Source of the DNA: Dehalococcoidia bacterium
Lineage (GTDB): Bacteria; Chloroflexota; Dehalococcoidia; DSTF01; JACRBR01
DNA: 35,096 nt
Reading direction: 5' to 3'
NCBI GenBank assembly: GCA_041494685.1
Contig: JBGQBE010000032.1
Span: forward strand, 1-35,096
Made by a program: the position numbers and the translations under genes. Position 1 is the first letter of the stretch, and each line of letters starts with the position of its first letter. Below are positions 1 through 27,207 of the stretch, piece after piece. The notes under the pieces are model-generated. The model saw only the letters and a program-made list of their open reading frames with translations, did no database searches and had not been told where the DNA came from.

Positions 1-1110
1 GATCTCGTCGCTGTTGGTGCGGGCCGAGATCGCCATGACGGCGAAGAACGCGCCCAGGTTCGTGAAGGCGTACGTCGCGAGGAAGAAGACGACGCCGCTC
101 GCGCCGAACTGCGTGCCGAGGCCGGTCGCGGAGATCGCCGCGAAACCGACCAGGAAGTTGCCGGCCTGCGCGATCGAGCTGTAGCCGAGCAGGCGGCGGA
201 TGTTCGACTGGCGCAGCGCCATCACATTGCCGACGGTCATCGTCACGGCCGCGAGGACCGCGAACAGGTGCTTCCAGTCGCCGCCCACGAAGGTGTGCGC
301 GCCGAAGCCTTCGAAGAAGATGCGCATCACGACCGCGAACGCGGCCGCCTTGCTGCCCACGGAGAGGAACGCCGCGACCGGCGCGGACGCGCCCTGGTAG
401 ACGTCCGGCACCCACATCTGGAACGGGACGATGGCCATCTTGAAGCCGAAGCCAGCCGCCAGGAACACCATGCTCACGATCAGCGCCGAGCGGATGCCGC
501 CGTTGCCGCCGGCGATCGTCTGCCCGATGCTGGGGCCGCCGTCCGTGCTGATCAGGTGCGTCGTGCCGGAGATGCCGTAGAGGAACGCCATGCCGTACAG
601 GATCACGGCCGACGACACCGCGCCGAGCAGCAGGTACTTCAGCGCCGCCTCCGCGCCCTTGTCGTCGCGCATGAAGCCGGCGAGGATGAACTGCGTGATC
701 GACGTCAGCTCGAGCGCCACGAAGATGGCCACGAGGTCGCGCGCGCCCGAGAGCAGCATCATGCCGGACGTGGCGATCAGGATCAGCGCGTAGAACTCGC
801 CCTGGCGCGGGCCGAAGCGCTCGGCGCCATCCATCGACGCCAGGATCACGGCGCCCGACACGCCGATGAACATGAACGTGAAGAAGACGCTGAAGTTGTC
901 CAGCGCCATGCTGTCGCTGAAGTACGACGCCTGCCGATCGCGCAGGATCAGCACGACCAACCACGCCGCCGCGGCCGCCAGCCCGGCGATCGCCACACCC
1001 GCGAGCAGCTTCTTCCGGCCGCGGGGCAGCGCCAGGTCCAGCATCAGGATCAGCGACGCCGTCACGATGACCGCGACGACCGGGCCCAGCCTGTTCAGAT
1101 CAGCCAGCAT
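1..1110 (-). CDS. nuoN: NADH-quinone oxidoreductase subunit N (3' end runs off the window)
   Basis: Hand translation from ATG 1110, which overlaps the nuoM stop as TGATG: MLADLNRLGPVVAV...FVALELTS...EAALKYLLLGAVSS...GFGFKMAIVPFQMWVPDVYQGA...NIRRLLGYSSIAQAG. Absent from the ORF track because it is truncated. Confidence 0.95.
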   Translation of the reverse strand, partial: MLADLNRLGPVVAVIVTASLILMLDLALPRGRKKLLAGVAIAGLAAAAAWLVVLILRDRQASYFSDSMALDNFSVFFTFMFIGVSGAVILASMDGAERFGPRQGEFYALILIATSGMMLLSGARDLVAIFVALELTSITQFILAGFMRDDKGAEAALKYLLLGAVSSAVILYGMAFLYGISGTTHLISTDGGPSIGQTIAGGNGGIRSALIVSMVFLAAGFGFKMAIVPFQMWVPDVYQGASAPVAAFLSVGSKAAAFAVVMRIFFEGFGAHTFVGGDWKHLFAVLAAVTMTVGNVMALRQSNIRRLLGYSSIAQAGNFLVGFAAISATGLGTQFGASGVVFFLATYAFTNLGAFFAVMAISARTNSDEI

Positions 1111-2612
1111 CAGCCCAGCACCTTCACGATGTTGATGATCCCAGAGTCAAGCACATCCACGATCAGCGAGGGCCGCACGCCCACGCCGATGATCACGATG
1201 ACGAGCGCCGCCATCGGCACGCGCTCCCACCAGTGGTCCACGTCCGGCAGGCTCGCCCAGCGCTCGTCGCGCGGGCCGTAGAACACGCGCTGGATCATCC
1301 ACGTGATGTAGCCGGCCGAGAGGACGATGCCGAACACGGCGAAGATCGTCGGCACGGTGTACTTGTCGAAGCTGCCGAGGAACACCAGCAGCTCCGCCAC
1401 GAAGCCGGACATCGCCGGCAGTCCCAGAGCCGCCAGCCCCGCTATCACCATCACCGTCGCGGCTATCGGCATCGTGTGCGCCAGCCCGGAGAGCTCGTCG
1501 ATGTTCCGCGTGTGCGCGCGGTCGTAGATGATGCCGACCATCAAGAAGAGCAGGCCCGTGATCGTGCCGTGCGTGAACATCTGCAGCGCCGCGCCGTTGA
1601 GGCTGACGTGCCCCAGCGCAGCGATGCCGAGCAGCACGTAGCCCATGTGGCTGACGCTGGAGTAGGCGACGAGCCGCTTCAGGTCTTTCTGCCGTAACGT
1701 CAGCACCGCACCGTAGATGATGCTGATCGCCGCCATCGTCGCCAGCCAGACGCCGTAGTCGTGCGCCTGCTTCGGCATCAGCGTGATGCAGATGCGGATG
1801 ATGCCGTAGCCGCCCATCTTCAGCAGCACGCCGGCGAGGATCACCGAGACGGCGGTCGGCGCGTCGGTGTGCGCGTCCGGCAGCCAGGTGTGGAACGGGA
1901 ACATCGGCAGCTTCACCGCGAAGCCGATGAAGATCAGGCCGAAGATCAGCCACACCGGGATCAGCGCGTCGCCGATCGTGCTCTGCTGCAGGCGCACCAT
2001 GTCGAACGTGTGCACGGGTCCGGCGCTGAAGCCGAGCGCAAGGATACCGGCCAGCATCAGCGCCGAGCCGGCGACCGTGTACAGCAGGAACTTCATCGCC
2101 GAGTACTCTTTGCGCCCGCTCCCCCAGACGGAGATGAGCATGAACATCGGCAGCAACTCGACTTCCCAGAACAGGAAGAACATGATCAGGTCCAGCGAGG
2201 TGAAGACGCCCAGCACGCCCGTCTCCAGCGCCAGCAGCCAGATAAAATACTCCTTCGTCCGCAGCTTCACGCCAAACGAGATCATCGTCGCGACCACGAA
2301 GAGGAGCGTCGTCAGCAGCACCATCACGATGCCGAGGCCGTCGACGCCCATGTGGAACTGCACGTCGAAGCCGGCGGTACCCGCATCGATCCACGTCGAC
2401 TGCGACGCGAACTGGAAGAGCTGCGGCGCGGCCTCGCCCGGGCTGCGGTCGAAGCGCAGGATCAGGATGAGCGACGTCATCAGCACGGTGAGCGTCGTGA
2501 AGAGCGCCAGCCACTTCGCCTCTCCGGCCTTGCTGTCGCGCGGCACGATGAGCGCGATGACGGCTGCCGCGACGGCCGGGAAGAAGACGGTGAAGACGAG
2601 CAGTCCGTTCAG
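1110..2612 (-). CDS. nuoM: NADH-quinone oxidoreductase subunit M (probable CTG start at 2612)
   Basis: Motifs GVDGL, FFLFWE, VKLPMFPFHTWLPDAHTDAP, LLKMGGYG, DLKRLVAYSSVSHMG. The frame extends past GTG 2546 through a hydrophobic helix (LNGLLVFTVFFPAVAAAVIALI) to CTG 2612, which follows GGAGAGG. Confidence 0.93.
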   Translation of the reverse strand: MNGLLVFTVFFPAVAAAVIALIVPRDSKAGEAKWLALFTTLTVLMTSLILILRFDRSPGEAAPQLFQFASQSTWIDAGTAGFDVQFHMGVDGLGIVMVLLTTLLFVVATMISFGVKLRTKEYFIWLLALETGVLGVFTSLDLIMFFLFWEVELLPMFMLISVWGSGRKEYSAMKFLLYTVAGSALMLAGILALGFSAGPVHTFDMVRLQQSTIGDALIPVWLIFGLIFIGFAVKLPMFPFHTWLPDAHTDAPTAVSVILAGVLLKMGGYGIIRICITLMPKQAHDYGVWLATMAAISIIYGAVLTLRQKDLKRLVAYSSVSHMGYVLLGIAALGHVSLNGAALQMFTHGTITGLLFLMVGIIYDRAHTRNIDELSGLAHTMPIAATVMVIAGLAALGLPAMSGFVAELLVFLGSFDKYTVPTIFAVFGIVLSAGYITWMIQRVFYGPRDERWASLPDVDHWWERVPMAALVIVIIGVGVRPSLIVDVLDSGIINIVKVLG

Positions 2613-2618
2613 GTGCGT

Positions 2619-4592
2619 CTACCTCTCCAGCAATACCAGCATCAGGAACGCCGTCAGTACCAGCCCGCCGAAGCCGACCGTGCCGTACGCCTGCACGGAG
2701 CCCGACTGCACCCAGCGCAGGCCGTCGCTCACGCGCCGCGCGACGGCGCCAGCGCCATTCACCGTGCCATCGATGATGTTCGTGTCGAACCACTGGCCGA
2801 CGCGCGTCAGGAAGTTGTAGAGCCCCTCGCGCACGATCAGCCCCTCGTAGAGCTCGTCCATGTAGTACTTGCGCGCGACCAGCGTGTGCAGCGGCCCGAA
2901 CGCCTTCTGCAACGACGGCGCCGAGATCGCCTTCGCCTGGTAGATCGCCCACGCCAGCGCGATGCCGCCCAGCGCCAGCGCCGACGACAGCAGCGCGATG
3001 GTGGGGTTGAAGCCCTCGCGGTGCAGCGCCTCCGCCGCGGAGTCCGGCAGCGCGCCCTCGAGCAGGTGCGCCAGACCCTCGGTGCTGTGCATCGGGAAGT
3101 TCACGAAGCCGGCCAGCATCGCCGGCACGGCGAGCAGCAGCAGCGGCAGCGTCATCACCAGCGGCGACTCGTGCGGCGTGCCGCCGTGCGCGTCGTGCGC
3201 ACCGTGCTCCGGCGGCTCGCCGCCCTTCCACTCGCCGTGGAAGGTCAGGAAGATCGCGCGGAAGGTGTAGAAGGCCGTCATGAAGACGACCGCCATCGCC
3301 ACGGCAAACAGCAGCTTGTTGTCGGCCCAGGCCGCGCCCAGCAGCTCGTCCTTCGACCAGAAACCCGCGAACGGCGGGACGCCGGCCAGGCTCAGCGACC
3401 CGATCATGAACGTCGCGTAGGTGATCGGCATGTACGTCCGCAGGCCGCCCATCTTGCGCATGTCGAAGGTGCCGGACGCATGGTTCACGGAGCCGGAGCC
3501 GAGGAAGAGCAGCGCCTTGAAGAACGCGTGCGTGAACAGGTGGAAGATCGCCGCGACGTAGCCGCCGACGCCCAGCGCCAGCATCATGTAGCCGAGCTGG
3601 CTGATCGTCGAGTACGCCAGGACGCGCTTGATATCGGTCGCTACGATGCCCATCGACGCGGCGAAGATCGCCGTGAATCCGCCGACGTAGGCGACCGTCG
3701 TCCGCGCCTCGTCCGACACCTGGAACACGGGGTACATCCGCGCCACGAGGTAGACGCCGGCCGCGACCATTGTGGCGGCGTGGATCAGCGCCGAGACCGG
3801 CGTCGGGCCCTCCATCGCGTCCGGGAGCCACACGTGCAGCGGGAACTGCGCCGACTTGCCCACGGCGCCCGCGAAGATGCCGAGCGCGAAGAGCGTCAGC
3901 ACACCGTCGGTGATCTGGTGTTGCTGCGCCATCGTCTGGAGCAGCGGGATGTTAAAGGTGTTGGTCTTGGTCCAGATCAGCAGGATCGCGAGCAGGAAGC
4001 CGACGTCGCCGAGGCGCGTCGTCAGGAACGCCTTCTTCGCGGCGTCGCCCGCGGACTTCTTCTGGAACCAGAAGCCGATCAGCAGGTACGAGCCGAGGCC
4101 GACAAGCTCCCAGAACACGTAGACGATGAGGATGCTGTCGACCATCAGCAGGCCCAGCATCGCCGCGGTGAACAGCGACATCCACATGTAGTAGCGGGCG
4201 TAGCCGGTGTCGCCTTCCATGTACCCCTGCGAGTACACCTGCACCAGCAGCGACACCGACGTCACGACGACCAGCATGATCGCGCTGAGGCCGTCGATGC
4301 GGAGGCCCAGCTCGATGCTGAGGTTCGGCCCGCCGAGCTGCTGCAGCACCGGGTTGTTCGTGCTGATCGTCAGCCACTCGTGCGAGTGGAACGCCAGCGC
4401 GTGCCCGTCGGCGGCGATAACGCTGTCGAGCGTCCAGAGCGCGAGCAAGAACGCGGTGCCGATCGCGGCGATCGTCACGTAGCCGGAAAGGCGCGGATAC
4501 GGCTTCGTGAGGAAGCCGATCGTCAGCAGCGATGCTACCGGCAGCAGCAGGATCGCCCAGACAACACCCTCGGGGACCGTCGGCAGGAACAT
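2619..4592 (-). CDS. nuoL: NADH-quinone oxidoreductase subunit L
   Basis: 657 aa; GKSAQFPLHVWLPDAMEGPTPVSALIHAATMV, DIKRVLAYSTISQLG, HAFFKALLFL, C-terminal QSG. Confidence 0.97.
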   Translation of the reverse strand: MFLPTVPEGVVWAILLLPVASLLTIGFLTKPYPRLSGYVTIAAIGTAFLLALWTLDSVIAADGHALAFHSHEWLTISTNNPVLQQLGGPNLSIELGLRIDGLSAIMLVVVTSVSLLVQVYSQGYMEGDTGYARYYMWMSLFTAAMLGLLMVDSILIVYVFWELVGLGSYLLIGFWFQKKSAGDAAKKAFLTTRLGDVGFLLAILLIWTKTNTFNIPLLQTMAQQHQITDGVLTLFALGIFAGAVGKSAQFPLHVWLPDAMEGPTPVSALIHAATMVAAGVYLVARMYPVFQVSDEARTTVAYVGGFTAIFAASMGIVATDIKRVLAYSTISQLGYMMLALGVGGYVAAIFHLFTHAFFKALLFLGSGSVNHASGTFDMRKMGGLRTYMPITYATFMIGSLSLAGVPPFAGFWSKDELLGAAWADNKLLFAVAMAVVFMTAFYTFRAIFLTFHGEWKGGEPPEHGAHDAHGGTPHESPLVMTLPLLLLAVPAMLAGFVNFPMHSTEGLAHLLEGALPDSAAEALHREGFNPTIALLSSALALGGIALAWAIYQAKAISAPSLQKAFGPLHTLVARKYYMDELYEGLIVREGLYNFLTRVGQWFDTNIIDGTVNGAGAVARRVSDGLRWVQSGSVQAYGTVGFGGLVLTAFLMLVLLER

Positions 4593-4694
4593 CTAGTCTC
4601 CTGGAAGCTGGATGTCAGAGGCGGGACATGCGCGGACCATCGCGCTTTGTCCCTTTCCTGCATCCGCCATCCAACCCTCCGGCCTCTCGGCCAT
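4593..4694 (-). other. Intercistronic imperfect long hairpin that is also a 33-codon open frame
   Basis: Arms 4603-4614/4668-4680, 4623-4628/4648-4653 and 4630-4634/4641-4645. ATG 4694 overlaps the upstream TAA, and TAG 4595-4593 abuts the nuoL ATG. Confidence 0.4.
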
Positions 4695-4885
4695 TAAATC
4701 TTCCGCAAGATCTCCAGCGCCACGTGCGTCTTGCTGTCGGGCACCCAGATCTCACGCGGCTGCGACATCGGCGCGTCGCCGGTCAGCGGCGGCACGACGC
4801 GGTTTGATACGCCCTCGGCGTCGAAGAGTTCCTTCCACACCTCGGCGGCGTACCCGTTCTTCACATCCAGCAGTTTCGACCACAT
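4694..4885 (-). CDS. Small DUF2007-like protein inside the nuo operon
   Basis: 63 aa. The pattern W..L....N...AE.WKELFDAEGV...V......EIWVP......A.EIL resembles DUF2007 putative signal-transducing proteins. Co-oriented between nuoK and nuoL. Confidence 0.75.
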   Translation of the reverse strand: MWSKLLDVKNGYAAEVWKELFDAEGVSNRVVPPLTGDAPMSQPREIWVPDSKTHVALEILRKI

Positions 4886-4928
4886 GGTTCGGTTTCGGAC
4901 CCCTACCCTTCAACTTCCCGTATCGAGA

Positions 4929-5261
4929 TCACCACCGAAGCAGATCGATCTCGTCGATGTTCAGCGTCTCGCGGTGCTTGTACACCGACACCGCCAGCGC
5001 CAGCGCCACGGCCGCCTCAGCCGCCGCGACGGTGATCACGAATACGGCGAACACCTGGCCGTCGAGCGGCCGCGGCGACACGACATAGCGCGAGAACGCG
5101 AGCAGCGTCACGTTCACGGCGTTCAGCATCAGCTCCACGCCCATGAGGATGCCGATCGCGTTCCGCTTCGAGAGCGCGACGAACAACCCGATCGCGAAGA
5201 GCATGCCGCCCAGCAGCAGGACGTGCTCCAGCGGCACGTGGGCGAGCACGATGCTAGGCAT
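4929..5261 (-). CDS. nuoK: NADH-quinone oxidoreductase subunit K
   Basis: ILMGVELMLNAVN, GQVFAVFVITVAAAEAAVALAL. Confidence 0.96.
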   Translation of the reverse strand: MPSIVLAHVPLEHVLLLGGMLFAIGLFVALSKRNAIGILMGVELMLNAVNVTLLAFSRYVVSPRPLDGQVFAVFVITVAAAEAAVALALAVSVYKHRETLNIDEIDLLRW

Positions 5262-5763
5262 CCTCGCCCTCCTCTTCCTTCGTCAGCACGATCGCGCCCA
5301 CCATCGCCGTCATCAGCAGCACCGACGCCACTTCGAACGGCACGACGTACGGCTTCAGCAGCGCTTGTCCGAGCGACGCCGCGGTCGCGGTGAACTCGGG
5401 CCGGTAGGCGATCTTCCAGGTCGTGTCGTACGACACGAAGACGATGATCACCAGCACGAGGCCGGCCAGCACCGCCGCCGGCGCCCAGAACGCGGTCTCG
5501 GAGTTCTTGCGGTCGGCCGCCGGCGTCAGCATGACGGCGAACGTCATCAGCACGGCGACCGCGCCGGCGTAGATCAGCACCTGCACCACCGCCACGAAGT
5601 CGGCTGAGAGCACGATGTAGATCCCGGCGACGCCAACGAACGCCAGCGCCAGGAACAACACGGCCTGCACCAGCTCGCGCACGAAGGCGACCATCAGCGC
5701 GCAGCCGACCGTGGTAGCCGCCAGGATGTAGAAGGCAACGACGATGCCGGTGTCGTTGATCAC
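5254..5763 (-). CDS. nuoJ: NADH-quinone oxidoreductase subunit J
   Basis: ADFVAVVQVLIYAGAVAVL, YVVPFEVASVLL..AMVGAIVL. GTG start after GGGGAG. Confidence 0.94.
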   Translation of the reverse strand: MINDTGIVVAFYILAATTVGCALMVAFVRELVQAVLFLALAFVGVAGIYIVLSADFVAVVQVLIYAGAVAVLMTFAVMLTPAADRKNSETAFWAPAAVLAGLVLVIIVFVSYDTTWKIAYRPEFTATAASLGQALLKPYVVPFEVASVLLMTAMVGAIVLTKEEEGEDA

Positions 5764-5785
5764 GCCGCGATCTCCCCCGCGATGC

Positions 5786-7078
5786 TCATACCGTCTGCGC
5801 CCCCGCGTGCGGCGCGTCGGCGGCCTTCGCCGGCAGCGACGGCACGTCGATCGTCGAGTAGAAGCGCAGCGTCGTAGGGAAGCGCTCGAACTTCGGCGCC
5901 AGCAGGCGCATGAAGGCGAAGATCGTGACGCCGGCCAGCGCGCCGTTGATGACGATGTAGGCTGGGATCAGGACGCCGGCGCTCCAACCGGACTCCTCCC
6001 AGAACAGCACCTCGGCCGCCACCAGTACCAGGTTCAGGATCGCCATCGGCGTCATCCACTTCCACGCGAACGCCAGCAGTTGGTCGATGCGGAACCGCGG
6101 CAACGTACCGCGCGTCCAGACGAAGAGGAAGTACACGCCGTAGATCTTGCCGATGTAGATCATCCATCCCGGCACGAGCTCGTCGAGCTTATACGCCCAC
6201 CAGCCGCCCAGGAAGAGCGTCGAGATGATCGCCGACACGACAACGGCGTTGATCAGCTCGGCGGCGTAGAACAAGCCGAACTTCATGCCCGAGTACTCGG
6301 TGTGGTAGCCGCCCACGATCTCCGACTCCGCCTCGGCGATGTCGGCGGGCGTGCGATTCAGTTCGGCCGAGACGGAGATGAAGTAGATGAAGAACGCCAG
6401 CGGCTGCAGCAGCACCATGAACGCCCAGTACTTCTCCTGGAAGAGCACGATGCCCTGCAGGTCCATCGTGCCGGCGAACAGCACCACGCCGAGCAGCGAG
6501 ATGACGATCGGGATCTCGTAGCTCACGAGCATGGCGATGACGCGCATCGAGCCGAAGAGGGCGTACTTGTTGTCGCTGCTATAGCCGGCCATGAACACGG
6601 CCAGCGCCCCCAGCGACGACGCGGCCAGCAGGAACAGCACGCCCACGTCCAGCGTCGCCAGCGTCATGTTGCGCCCCCACGGCAGCACCGCCATCAGCAG
6701 GATGCCCGGGACGGTAAACATGATCGGCGCCGCGGTGAAGATCAGCCCGGACGCCGTGCGCGGCATCAGCACTTCCTTCTGCATCAGTTTGATCGCGTCG
6801 GCGATGGGCTGCAGCAGGCCGAACGGGCCGAGCCGGTTCGGCCCCAGCCGCGACTGCATGCGCCCCACGACGCGCCGCTCGACCCAGATGTTGATGACCG
6901 CGACACCACCGACAAACGACACGATGCCGATGGCGCCCAGCAGGCCGGAGACGACGTAGATCAGCCACGCCGGCCCGTTCGCATCGCCGATCAGCTTCTC
7001 GATCTCGTGGCTGAGGTTCGAGAGGTCGCGGATGTCCCACCAGTTGTCGGTGATGATCGTCAGCAGCGCCGCCATCAT
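5786..7078 (-). CDS. nuoH: NADH-quinone oxidoreductase subunit H with N- and C-terminal extensions
   Basis: ERRVVGRMQSRLGPNR, QPIADAIKL..KE, AELNRTPADIAEAESEIVGGYHTEYSG, RGTLPRFRIDQL; 430 aa. Confidence 0.96.
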   Translation of the reverse strand: MMAALLTIITDNWWDIRDLSNLSHEIEKLIGDANGPAWLIYVVSGLLGAIGIVSFVGGVAVINIWVERRVVGRMQSRLGPNRLGPFGLLQPIADAIKLMQKEVLMPRTASGLIFTAAPIMFTVPGILLMAVLPWGRNMTLATLDVGVLFLLAASSLGALAVFMAGYSSDNKYALFGSMRVIAMLVSYEIPIVISLLGVVLFAGTMDLQGIVLFQEKYWAFMVLLQPLAFFIYFISVSAELNRTPADIAEAESEIVGGYHTEYSGMKFGLFYAAELINAVVVSAIISTLFLGGWWAYKLDELVPGWMIYIGKIYGVYFLFVWTRGTLPRFRIDQLLAFAWKWMTPMAILNLVLVAAEVLFWEESGWSAGVLIPAYIVINGALAGVTIFAFMRLLAPKFERFPTTLRFYSTIDVPSLPAKAADAPHAGAQTV

Positions 7079-8181
7079 CGGTCCAACTCCCCGACGTTGA
7101 TGTCGATGCTGCCCAGCGTCACGATCGCGTCGGCGATCGTCTGGCCCACGGTCATCTCCTTGAGTACGCTCAGGTTGATCAGCGAGGGCGCGCGCACGTG
7201 CCAGCGGTACGGCGCGGGGCCGCCGTCGCTGACGACGTAGAACCCGAGCTCGCCCTTCGGCGACTCGACGCGCGAGTACGCCTCGCCGGCGGGCGGGCGG
7301 ATGGCCAGCGGCACGTCGGTCTTGTGCGGGCCGTCCGGCAGCTGGTGCACCGCCTGGCGGATGATCCGCAGGCTCTGCTTCATCTCCTCGATGCGGATCA
7401 GCATGCGGTCGTAGGCATCGCCGTTGTAGCCGACGGGGATGTCAAACGTCATGCGGTCGTACACGCAGTACGGGTCCGCCTTCCGCGTGTCCCACGCGAT
7501 GCCCGCGCTGCGCAGCATCGGTCCGGTGAGCGAGGCGTTGATCGCCATCTCCGGCGTCACGACGCCCACGTCGCGGGCGCGCATCATGATGATCTCGTTG
7601 CCGACCAGGAGCTCCCCGTACTCCTCGAAGCGTTGCGGCAGGTCGTCGTTGATCAGGCGGTCCAACGCCGGCAGGAACTCGTCCGGGATGTCGAAGGCGA
7701 CGCCGCCGATGCGCATGTAGTTCGTCGTCAAGCGCGCGCCGCAGGTCATCTCGAAGAGATCCAGCACCTTCTCGCGGTCGCGGAAGCAGTACATGACGGG
7801 CGTCTGCCAGGCGCCGCAGTCGTTGATGAAGGCACCCGTGGCCATGCAGTGGCTCGCGATGCGCTGCAGCTCGGAGAAGATCACCCGCAGGTACTGGGCG
7901 CGCTCCGGCACCTCGATGCTCGCCAGCTTCTCGACGGAGAGGCAGTAGCCGAGATTGCCCGTCATTGCCGCGAGGTAGTCCATGCGGTCCGTGAACGGGA
8001 TGTTCTGGGTGAACGTACGCTCCTCCGCCAGCTTCTCCATGCTGCGGTGCAGGTAGCCCACCACCATCTTCACGTCGACGATGCGCTCGCCGTCGATCCG
8101 CGCGACCATGCGGAACACGCCGTGCGTGCTCGGATGCTGCGGTCCGATATTGACTTCGACGGGCTCCGACTTGATCGGCAC
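7075..8181 (-). CDS. nuoD: NADH-quinone oxidoreductase subunit D
   Basis: NIGPQHPSTHGVFR, GYLHRSMEK, DRMDY, ESPKGELG, C-terminal GELDR. No NiFe-binding CxxC pairs. Confidence 0.96.
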   Translation of the reverse strand: MPIKSEPVEVNIGPQHPSTHGVFRMVARIDGERIVDVKMVVGYLHRSMEKLAEERTFTQNIPFTDRMDYLAAMTGNLGYCLSVEKLASIEVPERAQYLRVIFSELQRIASHCMATGAFINDCGAWQTPVMYCFRDREKVLDLFEMTCGARLTTNYMRIGGVAFDIPDEFLPALDRLINDDLPQRFEEYGELLVGNEIIMMRARDVGVVTPEMAINASLTGPMLRSAGIAWDTRKADPYCVYDRMTFDIPVGYNGDAYDRMLIRIEEMKQSLRIIRQAVHQLPDGPHKTDVPLAIRPPAGEAYSRVESPKGELGFYVVSDGGPAPYRWHVRAPSLINLSVLKEMTVGQTIADAIVTLGSIDINVGELDR

Positions 8182-8202
8182 GGTCGTCTTCCTACGCGCT
8201 GC

Positions 8203-8754
8203 TTACTGACCGCTGCCCGGGTTGAGCGGGCGGAACTCCTGTCCCGTCTGGCCGGGCACCTGCTTGGGAAACTGGCTGAGGCCGGTCTTCTGCCCGCCCG
8301 GCAACGACATGAAGTCCTTGCGCAGCGGATGACCCGGGAACGCGTCCCACAGGAAGAGCCGCGTCAGCGCCGGGTGGCCCTCGAAGACTACGCCCATCAG
8401 GTCGTACACCTCGCGCTCCTGCAGCCAGGCGCCGACCCAGAGCGGCGAGATCGACGGCACGACCGGCTGTTCGTGGTCGGCCGGCACCTTGACCTCGAAG
8501 ATGTGGTTCTGCGCCAGCGACGAGAAGTGGTACACCACGTCGATGCGCGTGATCTGGTCGACGCTGCACATCTGCACCAGGAACTTCCCGTCCAGCGCCT
8601 CGTCGTCGCGGATGAACGCCATCGCGTCGAGCGCCGAGGCCGGCTCCAGCACGACGTAGCCGGGCTGCACGTCGCGGACGGCGTGCGGCAGCTTCGTCCG
8701 GATGCGGTCGGCGACCTGCTGGCCGGGCAGCGTGAGCGTGGCGGCGTGCGGCAC
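8203..8754 (-). CDS. nuoC: NADH-quinone oxidoreductase subunit C
   Basis: EREVYDLMGVVFEGHP...GHPLRKDF. GTG 8754 overlaps the nuoA TAG (TAGTG) and follows GGAG. Confidence 0.92.
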   Translation of the reverse strand: MPHAATLTLPGQQVADRIRTKLPHAVRDVQPGYVVLEPASALDAMAFIRDDEALDGKFLVQMCSVDQITRIDVVYHFSSLAQNHIFEVKVPADHEQPVVPSISPLWVGAWLQEREVYDLMGVVFEGHPALTRLFLWDAFPGHPLRKDFMSLPGGQKTGLSQFPKQVPGQTGQEFRPLNPGSGQ

Positions 8755-9125
8755 TAGATCCACTCCATGGCGCGCTTGCGCCACGCGTAGGCGTAGCCGA
8801 CGCCGAGCGTCGCCATGAAGATCAGCGCCTCGGCGAAGGCGTAGAAGCCCAGGCCGCGGTAGGCGACGGCCCACGGGTAGAGGAAGACCGCCTCCACGTC
8901 GAAGACGACGAAGAGCAGCGCGAACAGGTAGTAGCGGACGTTATAGCGGACCTGCGCGGTGCCGATGGGCACCATGCCGCACTCGTAGACCGACTGCTTG
9001 ATCGGGTCGGGGTTCGACGGGCGGATCTTGAAGACGCCCAGCGCGACCGACGCGATGACGGGGACCAGCGGGAAGGCGATCGCGAAGATCAGCAGGAATC
9101 CAGCCCGGCCAAACTGCTCGATCAC
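8754..9125 (-). CDS. nuoA: NADH-quinone oxidoreductase subunit A
   Basis: K..VYECG, YYLFALLFVVFDVEAVFLYPWA, C-terminal MEW. SD GGGGG. Confidence 0.96.
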   Translation of the reverse strand: MIEQFGRAGFLLIFAIAFPLVPVIASVALGVFKIRPSNPDPIKQSVYECGMVPIGTAQVRYNVRYYLFALLFVVFDVEAVFLYPWAVAYRGLGFYAFAEALIFMATLGVGYAYAWRKRAMEWI

Positions 9126-9151
9126 GGCTGCGTTCCCCCGTTCCGAGGACT

Positions 9152-9169
9152 TTGTGAATTTCTACGCTA
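9152..9169. promoter_or_regulatory. Candidate Rex operator in the nuo leader
   Basis: TTGTGAA-TTTC-TACGCTA compared with the Rex consensus TTGTGAA-N4-TTCACAA: one perfect half-site, the other 4/7. Confidence 0.45.
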
Positions 9170-9180
9170 TCAGCGGCCGA

Positions 9181-9189
9181 ATCCTATCA
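9181..9189 (-). promoter_or_regulatory. Extended -10 promoter of the nuo operon
   Basis: TG-A-TAGGAT on the minus strand, about 55 nt upstream of nuoA. Confidence 0.55.
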
Positions 9190-9298
9190 CAGGCACCCCC
9201 CACGGACAACAGACGCGAGGCCGCCGCCGAAGCGGCCGCGGAGCGCCGTGCGAGGCGGGCGGGGTGTCGAGGTTAGAGAGGACAGGCGTCAGTAGCTA

Positions 9299-9727
9299 CT
9301 AACGCGCCAGCAGGTGTGGCAGGACATAGCTGAAGAAGAACCCGACGGCGGCACCGCCCACGGTGAATACGCCGCGATCGAGCCACATCCGCCGCTGGAA
9401 CTCGCGCCGATCGTGCCTAGAACGGGCGTAGTCCGCGAACGACAGATCAGCGTCTGGCTCGTACCACGTGCAGTGTCGGCGCTCGTTGAGTACGGCGACG
9501 AGGTCCGCGCCCTCCATGCCGTACATGTTGAGGACGCCCTTCTCGCAGTTCAATCCGCCGTTTCGTCGATTCAGATCGCCGCTTGCCCGCAGCGCGGTGG
9601 GCAATTCTATGAGCCCCCAGCGTTGGAATTCCATTCCATTCTCGGTTGCGTTGCCTTTGGTGTCCAGCATCCATCGCCGCCCCAGGAACCCGCAGTCGAT
9701 GCAGCGCGCGGTGCGTCGGCTAAACAT
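9299..9727 (-). CDS. Hypothetical protein with four Cys and a C-terminal TM anchor
   Basis: 142 aa; CIDC...C...C and C-terminal GVFTVGGAAVGFFFSYVLPHLL. Lies 6 nt downstream of 9734-10081. Confidence 0.65.
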   Translation of the reverse strand: MFSRRTARCIDCGFLGRRWMLDTKGNATENGMEFQRWGLIELPTALRASGDLNRRNGGLNCEKGVLNMYGMEGADLVAVLNERRHCTWYEPDADLSFADYARSRHDRREFQRRMWLDRGVFTVGGAAVGFFFSYVLPHLLAR

Positions 9728-9733
9728 GCGGCG

Positions 9734-10081
9734 CTATGGCTCCGGCCACGGATCGCCCACGTTGACGACCGTCTCCGGAGGTGCTTGGAATGTGTACGTC
9801 GTCCCTGCGCTGGTGCGTACTGTAAGTTCAAGGCGCGTGTTGAGAGCGCCAACGACTATATCGCCACCGCCCTTCGCCATCTGATCACATATCGGACCAT
9901 TGACATCGACCGACGTATCGTTTGGTCCCGTTGGCAGCGTGCACTTCTTCAGGATGCCGACGACGGTGTCGGGCGTCTTGACCTCGCCCCGACCGTGATC
10001 CCACGTCAGCGCGACAACTCCGCCGCCGATGACGCCTCCGACGATGGCGGCTCCGAGCAAAAGACCTGCTGTCCGCAACAT
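9734..10081 (-). CDS. Hypothetical membrane-anchored or exported protein
   Basis: 115 aa with an N-terminal hydrophobic segment and two Cys. TATGAT lies 6 nt before the ATG. Confidence 0.7.
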   Translation of the reverse strand: MLRTAGLLLGAAIVGGVIGGGVVALTWDHGRGEVKTPDTVVGILKKCTLPTGPNDTSVDVNGPICDQMAKGGGDIVVGALNTRLELTVRTSAGTTYTFQAPPETVVNVGDPWPEP

Positions 10082-10186
10082 GGCTCAATCATACACCGCG
10101 AGGTAGCAGCATGACGCGCAAGAAAGCTCCCGATGCTTCCTGCACCGCCACGACGAAGGCGGGCGCTCCGCTGCGCCCGGCGACGC

Positions 10187-10570
10187 TCACCGCCCGATGC
10201 CGGAGAGGACGTCGCCGGCCGGGGCGCGCGGATACGCGGGCAGCACGGCGATCTCGTGCGGCTCGGTGTGGCGGTAGCAGACCCAGCACGACGTCCCGCG
10301 CGAGCCGCTGACGCCCTTCGCTGGACGGGCGCGGAGCTGCATCGGCTCGTTGCAGTGCCCCCACCCCCGGCTCTGCAGCTGCGGACAGAGCGGCGGGCGC
10401 TCGGCGCGCGAGGTCTCGGACACGTCCTCGGCGACCAGCTCCGGCGCGCGGCCAATCAGCCACGTCACCAGCGGGTTGCCGAGCGTGTAGGCGCCGAGAT
10501 AGCTGCTGCCGGCGTCGCGCGGCGCGTCGAGGTCGAACAGCGGGCTGCCCGGCGGGCCGGCGTCGCTCAT
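10187..10570 (-). CDS. Hypothetical protein, possible Zn-ribbon
   Basis: 127 aa; CP...HCNEPM...CWVCYRH. TACACT lies 6 nt before the ATG. Confidence 0.6.
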   Translation of the reverse strand: MSDAGPPGSPLFDLDAPRDAGSSYLGAYTLGNPLVTWLIGRAPELVAEDVSETSRAERPPLCPQLQSRGWGHCNEPMQLRARPAKGVSGSRGTSCWVCYRHTEPHEIAVLPAYPRAPAGDVLSGIGR

Positions 10571-11529: not shown

Positions 11530-11814
11530 CTACGGGGCGATCGCGTCCACCTTGGCGCGCGCATCGGCCTTGTCCTTGTACCACACGGCGTTGATCTCGG
11601 TGTACGCCTTGAGGTTGTCCGGCACGTCGTCTTCCGCAAAGATCGCGTTCACCGGGCAGGCCGGCTCGCACGCGCCGCAGTCGATGCACTCGTCGGGGTC
11701 GACGTACAGCATCTTGTCCGCGTCGCCCTCATCGTGGATGCAGTCAACGGGGCAAACGTCCACGCACGACCTGTCCTTCGTGCCGATACAGGCTTCGGTA
11801 ATCACATACGCCAT
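11530..11814 (-). CDS. fdxA: Dicluster ferredoxin, 7Fe (FdxA-like)
   Basis: C-x7-C-x3-CP..C and CxxCxxCxxxCP motifs; SD GAGGAG. Confidence 0.92.
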   Translation of the reverse strand: MAYVITEACIGTKDRSCVDVCPVDCIHDEGDADKMLYVDPDECIDCGACEPACPVNAIFAEDDVPDNLKAYTEINAVWYKDKADARAKVDAIAP

Positions 11815-26276: not shown

Positions 26277-27207
26277 ATGAGCAAGCACAAGTTCCGGTTC
26301 GGCGTCCAGACCACCACGGTCAGCTCGGCCGAGGCGTGGCGCGAGAAGGCCCGCAAGATCGAGGACCTCGGCTACTCCACGCTGCTGATCCCGGACCACT
26401 TCAACGACCAGCTTGCGCCGCTGCCCGCCATGATGGCCGCGGCCGCCGCCACGACGACACTCCGCGTCGGCGGGCTCGTGCTCGACAACGACTACAAGCA
26501 CCCCGTCGTGCTGGCGAAGGAGCTGGCGACGCTCGACGTGCTGTAGGCGGCCGGCTGGAGCTGGGCATCGGCGCCGGCTGGATGGAGAGCGACTACCGCC
26601 AGGCAGGCATGACGTATGACCCGCCGGGCGTCCGCATCTCGCGCTTGCAGGAAGGCCTCAAGGTCATCAAGGGCTGTTCGCCGACGAGAAGCTGGACTTC
26701 GATGGCCAGTTCTACGACGTCCACCTGAACGGCACGCCGAAGCCGGTGCAGAAGCCGCACCCGCCGATCCTGATCGGCGGCGGCGGCAAGCGCGTGCTGA
26801 AGTACGCCGCCCGCGAGGCGGACATCGTCGGCGTGAACTTCATCCTCACGGAGGGCGTCGTCAACGAAGCCGTGATGGCCAACGGCACGCCCGAGGCGAC
26901 GCACGAGAAGATCCGGTGGATCCGCGAGGGCGCGGGTACCCGCTTCGACGACCTGGAGCTGAACATCACGATCTTCGCCGCCATCGTCACGAACGACAGC
27001 ACCGGCCTGGCCGAGCGCCTGGCGCCGCGCTTCGCGTCGACGCCGAAAGATCTGCCGCGCGCGCCGCACGTACTGCTCGGCAGCGCGGACGAGATCGTCG
27101 ATGAGTTGCAGCGGCGGCGAGATGAGTTCGGCTTCTCGTATTTCGCCATCTCCGGTGATGGTTTCGAAGCGTTCGCGCCGGTGGTGAAGAAGCTCGCCGG
27201 GACGTAG
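26277..27207 (+). pseudogene. LLM-class (probably F420-dependent) oxidoreductase broken by two single-base deletions (or assembly errors)
   Basis: Three consecutive frames join into one LLM protein: PDH...HPVVLAKELATLDVL / GGRLELGIGAGW / PHPPILIGGGG. Breaks at about 26544 and 26673. Confidence 0.85.

Follow-up and report, generated by a model that had tools for sequence, protein, structure and literature searches.

Where does a complex I-like operon that carries no gene for an iron-sulfur (Fe-S) subunit obtain its electron wire? The question is raised by a minus-strand nuo operon at the left end of JBGQBE010000032.1 positions 1-35,096, a stretch of 35,096 nucleotides from a Dehalococcoidia bacterium that we call the window. 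The initial annotation proposed either that nuoB and nuoI are encoded elsewhere or that the operon is a novel reduced pump. Gene content, cysteine ligands, orthology, co-occurrence, gene linkage, and conserved promoter boxes support the former: the operon lacks Fe-S subunit genes because these genes sit at three other loci of the genome carrying the window (97.6% complete). Together, the four loci likely encode a complete proton-pumping complex I that oxidises NADH (reduced nicotinamide adenine dinucleotide), its assembly, its NADH donor, and the binding of Rex at its promoters being deduced from sequence.

The gene order of the operon is A-C-D-H-J-K-x-L-M-N. Gene identities, here and below, come from NCBIfam and Pfam profile matches with the NCBIfam cut-offs as standard; NCBIfam names NuoA, C, D, H, J, K, L, M, and N, so that the membrane subunits A, H, J, K, L, M, and N of the 14-subunit enzyme, plus C and D, are all in the operon. 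The features are:

9152..9169, no strand assigned: predicted Rex operator, 27 nt upstream of nuoA, 3 mismatches to the consensus
8754..9125, minus strand: nuoA, 123 aa, named by NCBIfam
8203..8754, minus strand: nuoC, 183 aa from a GTG overlapping the nuoA stop; nuoB is missing at this A/C junction
7075..8181, minus strand: nuoD, 368 aa, with the His20/Tyr69 quinone site and without NiFe ligands
5786..7078, minus strand: nuoH, 430 aa; nuoI is missing after it
5254..5763, minus strand: nuoJ, named by NCBIfam
4929..5261, minus strand: nuoK, named by NCBIfam
4694..4885, minus strand: gene x, 63 aa, DUF2007-like, between nuoK and nuoL
2619..4592, minus strand: nuoL, 657 aa, named by NCBIfam
1110..2612, minus strand: nuoM, likely CTG start at 2612-2610
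1..1110, minus strand: nuoN, 5' part; the remainder is on contig C53

The junctions leave no room for nuoB or nuoI, as first described: the nuoA stop TAG overlaps the nuoC GTG (TAGTG at 8754), and 22 nt separate the nuoH stop from the nuoJ GTG. Genes hidden in another frame are ruled out by a six-frame scan of positions 1-9300, which found neither a CxxCxxCxxxC motif nor a NuoB-type CC motif. NuoD does retain the quinone-site motifs noted earlier, GPQHPSTH (His20) and DRMDY (Tyr69), 49 residues apart, the same spacing as between His38 and Tyr87 of Thermus Nqo4. It has no NiFe CxxC pairs and is 87-95% identical across most genera of the family. The nuoN gene leaves the contig end and resumes on contig C53 with a 111-nt overlap. 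The nuoM start codon aligned in 16 relatives is ATG in nine, CTG in four, TTG in one, and GTG in one, with one unaligned. A sigma-70 scan found no site.

Misassembly at the junctions, which would have explained the missing genes, can be rejected. Contigs from other sediment runs bridge both: X2 (5677-6344) and X3 (5636-6166) cross H-J with 0 differences, and X4 (8699-8967) crosses A-C with 5 differences. A further contig, X1, may be what the present sequence was taken from. The same order recurs in relatives, the named ones being metagenome-assembled genomes of Dehalococcoidia/Chloroflexota. At the level of the order (41 genomes, 20 operon loci fetched), all 20 loci have the split order, with A-C and H-J adjacency each visible in 19. 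At the level of the class, 110 of 131 genomes have a NuoD match at E<=1e-128; among 60 loci fetched across families, 20 (from ten families) are without B and I, and 40 retain both in place, most also with x. There is no B or I match in 63 of the 80 loci taken from genome contigs. The split operon is real, old, and clade-wide.

The displaced genes are found in the same genome. Its NuoB-family matches number three. The first is in a hydrogenase-4-like cluster; the second belongs to another nuo operon (the second operon) on contig C1, which is a complete A-B-C-D-H-I-J-K-L-M-N set of 11 genes with its own B and I; the third is a lone nuoB on contig C12 (C12:47350-47997). The lone NuoB scores above the NCBIfam NuoB cut-offs and has all four N2 cysteines (C52, C53, C118, and C148). 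A lone nuoI lies on contig C4 (C4:63992-64528); it has both CxxCxxCxxxCP motifs, its eight cluster cysteines being invariant in 22 rows, and it overlaps the gene for an 863-aa NuoG/FdhF-like protein. An E-F pair is on contig C42. The Fe-S genes are thus dispersed as nuoB alone, nuoI-nuoG-like, and nuoE-nuoF-like. Hence, the suggestion that B and I are encoded elsewhere was right, and the reported absence of nuoEFG was probably wrong. The genome-wide search that had been proposed recovers NuoB, NuoI, and E/F-like and G-like proteins; FpoF is not among them, and an FpoF input, as in the F420H2:quinone oxidoreductase Fpo, is rejected, the FpoF/FrhB family PF04432 not being found in this genome. 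Another candidate partner, an EF-fused gene with a formate dehydrogenase cluster on contig C21, is unlikely: it retains the Cys motif and is present in only some relatives.

These genes co-occur with the operon. NuoD of the window type is present in 37 of the 41 order-level genomes (one row of these tallies is the unpublished genome G021, on which no claim rests). Among the 37 carriers, 35 have the lone B, 35 the lone I (one partial), 35 the G, and 37 the C42-type F; the carriers missing lone B, I, or G are genomes 51-84% complete. The four non-carriers (genus g21, 92-97% complete) have none of lone B, I, G, or C42-type F. They keep the second operon, and the two that were fetched carry a canonical A-B-C-D-E-F-G-H-I-J-K-L-M-N operon. 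Among the 20 split genomes of the class, lone B is found in 20, lone I in 19, and F in 20.

The trees of B, I, D, and G result from quick searches with Shimodaira-Hasegawa-like approximate likelihood ratio support only, and near-identical rows from 18 same-family genomes were left out of the B and D trees. In the B tree, 35 of 36 lone rows form one clade (support 97) among the B of intact operons of the same type, the nearest intact-operon rows being those of G141, G061, and G088. In the I tree, all 25 lone rows likewise form one clade (support 97), placed among intact-operon I rows of this type. B and I from the second operon fall into clades of their own, away from the lone genes, and are therefore rejected as the source of the latter.

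Gene order shows which of the dispersed genes belong together. In split genomes, the gene that follows nuoI is G in 16 of 17 regions. The genes B-I-G are contiguous in G059 and G153; this cassette is broken in the window's family. In G140 and G124, a Ni-superoxide dismutase pair is among the genes between B and I. The 17 I-linked G rows form one clade (support 100), and its sister rows are the E-F-G operons of G141, G061, and G088, the genomes that are also closest in the B tree. Of ten intact-operon genomes checked, eight have their best F and G matches close together, G being just downstream of F. A history consistent with this would start from a class ancestor with A-B-C-D-H-I-J-K-x-L-M-N plus a separate E-F-G operon of the Bfu/formate-dehydrogenase type. 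Within one large clade, the operon would have lost B and I, which G then joined to make a B-I-G cassette that often adjoins iscS/suf; in several families, the window's among them, B would later have split from this cassette. The genes iscS/suf lie at most 1.5 kb upstream of lone nuoB in 13 of 24 class-level loci, so that some link to iron is possible. At the order level this holds for only two of 30 loci, and the present genome does not show it. As the adjacency is lost in the window's family, iron control is set aside as the main cause of the split (no Fur/IscR scan was made). In family f22 (L379; G153, G105, and G122), the second nuo operon also has its nuoI at a distant locus. Shortly after nuoG, this genome (L015 10204-10851) has a stand-alone gene for a Lon N-terminal domain, as do the distant lineages of L333, L334, and L337.

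The four loci also share a predicted regulatory signal. The genome encodes a Rex above the NCBIfam cut-off, and Rex boxes were scored as mismatches to TTGTGAA-N4-TTCACAA (PMC6391272) against shuffles and 94 control windows. The 18-bp Rex-like palindromes have 3 mismatches ahead of nuoA, 2 at lone nuoB, 3 at nuoE, and 4 at nuoI. Across the genome, 29 sites have 3 or fewer mismatches, and among 2,282 open reading frames (ORFs), 20 have a site at 3 and 76 at 4 mismatches. Boxes with at most 4 mismatches precede A in 16/18, B in 23/30, I in 16/20, and E in 17/19 cases at the order level, and in 13/20, 12/24, 14/25, and 15/29 at the class level. The background is 1-5% of shuffles (2-5% at the order level, with 4.7% for order-level nuoA promoters) and 2 of 94 control windows. 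In relatives' boxes, the half-sites are conserved and the spacer is variable. A matrix built from 52 sites of other families, taken at orthologous promoters, ranks the sites among 150 as B 1st, A 9th, I 17th-18th, and E 36th-37th. Other top-ranked Rex-type sites precede atpB, hemB, rex, and ctaA, and further Rex-type boxes at C16:14243, C7:42254, and C23:3867 precede genes that we presume to be look-alikes of a clade II nosZ, a cytochrome b, and a ferredoxin. The conserved box at all four loci points to joint control by the NADH/NAD+ ratio, and we predict that the four loci are co-repressed by Rex; separate, iron-responsive control, as suggested initially, is not supported. Since weaker Rex-type matches are found at intact operons (14/36) and at the second operon type (8/19), the circuit is likely older than the split.

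The input module is the least canonical part. NuoE (Pfam PF01257) has the C1 [2Fe-2S] ligands C82, C87, C123, and C127. F is about 630 aa long with BfuB architecture, and its best solved relatives are BfuB (9n5u, 9bov, and 7t2r; E 1e-138 to 1e-115, versus 1e-87 for NuoF). G is closest to FdsA (6tg9), with a conserved extra cysteine-rich insert. The metal-ligating Cys/Sec of its DxCxRxCH region is missing in the 16 I-linked rows alignable there (G140 is frameshifted), and a DHCARL motif is kept in two outgroup E-F-G operons. The module thus seems to derive from an NAD-linked formate dehydrogenase and would now feed NuoI. The complete complex might then still confurcate, taking NADH and reduced ferredoxin together as predicted for Nuo-Bfu, and the BfuB likeness of F is in keeping with this, as are the B2 His/Cys ligands in 19-22 of 25 split-clade rows and in this genome, and the one C-terminal 4Fe-4S set in 23 of 25. 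We find this improbable: the B1 ligands are in all 25 rows, but half of the eight B3/B4 cysteines are absent in 25 of 25, and the N-terminal B5 cysteines are in only 12-16 of 25 rows, with none in this genome. Because Bfu enzymes are defined by five clusters in BfuB (PMC9304861), F, with one of B3/B4 lost and B5 eroded, is not a member. The module may instead stand midway between the bifurcating Bfu enzymes and canonical NuoEFG, and as such remains of interest. A bolder version, speculative and rather unlikely, is that the Dehalococcoidia re-invented the NADH input: an 11-subunit enzyme would have recruited a Bfu-type formate dehydrogenase (E-F-G), which lost the molybdenum site and part of the bifurcation wiring and kept B2 and one ferredoxin-type cluster, leaving a living intermediate that takes electrons from NADH and ferredoxin, with x as a class-specific subunit.

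That G, not E-F, is the gene tied to I also allows a complex of 12 subunits, B, I, and G among them, that would receive its electrons from ferredoxin or flavodoxin docked on G, as in Campylobacter; E-F would then work elsewhere. In C. jejuni and H. pylori, the twelfth subunit is likewise NuoG-like (PMC3144371). In the window, an FdxA-type 7Fe ferredoxin gene (11530-11814, minus strand) lies 2.4 kb upstream of nuoA, and such a gene is near the operon in 11 of 58 related loci. These loci are all from close relatives, however, and E-F is present in 37 of 37 carriers and none of four non-carriers, has the Rex-type box, and adjoins G in the outgroups; we consider this possibility slightly less probable still than confurcation. 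A reduced pump or antiporter without an Fe-S wire, the novel case raised in the initial annotation, can draw on the conserved lack of any Fe-S gene within the operon itself, but is hardly credible when almost all carriers retain orthologous lone B and I with intact ligands, genomes without the operon lack them, and the operon's promoter box recurs ahead of both.

A complete NADH-oxidising complex I over four loci accounts best for these data. The operon would supply the Fe-S-free part, and the nuoB, nuoI-nuoG-like, and nuoE-nuoF-like loci the Fe-S subunits. Electrons would pass from NADH to the flavin mononucleotide (FMN) and cluster N3/B1 on F, along the Fe-S chain of the G-like protein, through the two NuoI clusters to N2 on NuoB, and to the quinone at the NuoD/NuoB/NuoH site; quinone reduction would drive pumping by L, M, N, and H/J/K/A.

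Several observations weigh against it. E, F, G, and lone I all score below their NCBIfam equivalog cut-offs, lone NuoI reaching 95 bits versus 113 for TIGR01971. F and G are closer matches to subunits of Bfu enzymes and formate dehydrogenases than to NuoF/NuoG, so that E-F could serve another partner, and the FMN loop of F is divergent in the window's family (GHSGSFF for GRGGAxF). The four non-carriers belong to one genus and therefore count as one event, not four. The nearest intact rows in the I tree are weakly resolved and unlike those in the B tree, and G056 joins the main split clade in neither the B nor the D tree and may represent a separate split event. The second intact operon, with its own B and I, may contribute to hybrid assemblies. 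Finally, the Rex matrix ranking is partly circular, because the training sites come from orthologous promoters.

Throughout the class, gene x occupies the same place after nuoK and before nuoL, whether the operon is split or intact, which suggests an assembly or subunit role; it is a candidate accessory subunit or assembly factor. Its match to Pfam DUF2007 is under the cut-off, and 23 of 65 homologues match this family. W2, A14, H54, and E58 are invariant. The predicted fold is small alpha/beta (predicted local distance difference test score 96.7); Foldseek gives 2hfv with a template modelling score of 0.72, but nothing at E<=0.001. There is no sequence match among solved structures, the 145 matches in a representative library come without names or context, and a literature listing for DUF2007 showed no apparent link to complex I.

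Among known systems, the closest is the 14-subunit complex I (E. coli Nuo and Thermus Nqo): all 14 subunit types are in this genome, with the ligands of N2, N6a/b, and N3 and the quinone-site His/Tyr kept. The present system differs in its spread over four loci, none of its Fe-S genes being in the main operon, and in the BfuB-like F, the FdsA-like G, and the extra small gene x. According to Spero 2015 (PMC4453560), nuo genes are co-localised in 86% of genomes, leaving about 14% of complex I genomes where they are not. Intact-operon relatives in the class share the 11-gene order of the Dehalococcoides enzyme (PMC6005880 and PMC3144371), and the window NuoD branches among them. That 11-subunit class is described as lacking a designated input module, whereas here B and I are relocated, G lies behind nuoI, and E/F co-occur; the G-like gene tied to the relocated I points to a dedicated module. 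In Nuo-Bfu (Schut 2022, PMC9304861), a BfuABC-type module replaces canonical NuoEFG, and the B1, B2, and C1 ligands are present here too. In contrast to that system, which is reported from other phyla, one of B3/B4 is lost here, B5 is eroded, and the genes are outside the nuo operon. In Streptomyces avermitilis, Rex binds the nuoA, atp, cyd, and rex-hem promoters (PMC5355995). The same box precedes nuoA, atp, hem, and rex here, with the difference that all four dispersed nuo loci have their own copy of the predicted box. Literature searches, covering listings and passages of the named papers, returned no description of this arrangement, of Rex boxes at four loci, of the B-I-G cassette, or of a half-degenerate Bfu module. 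None of the terms 'complex I', 'nuo', and 'NADH' occurs in the main text of a paper on Tepidiforma (PMC10284905), whose supplements may annotate these genes.

Some other genes were seen nearby and in relatives. Upstream of nuoA (9299-10570) are three short ORFs with no usable Pfam/NCBIfam match that were not found in 58 related loci. A luciferase-like monooxygenase (26277-27207, plus strand) is in two ORF pieces of 89 and 153 aa and is possibly frameshifted; only the first matched Pfam. Some intact Dehalococcoidia operons have a gene of about 570 aa between nuoC and nuoD (L162 8286-10001 and L165 8284-10011), presumably, from its motif, a B12-binding radical SAM protein; gaps of similar size are in L167, L169, L205, and L240. 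In L164 (12290-14071), NuoI is enlarged by an insert of roughly 460 aa in which the flavin-binding motif GAGPAG occurs, and similar gaps are in L168, L206, L215, and L239. We take this insert to be GltD/NfnB-like, which would make it a built-in input module in some lineages.

In conclusion, the apparent new pump is removed as false. Annotation based on operons scores a large clade of Dehalococcoidia as being without a working complex I. The interest that is left lies in the same predicted redox-sensing operator at four dispersed loci, and in an apparently intermediate input module that bears on how complex I acquired its NADH module.

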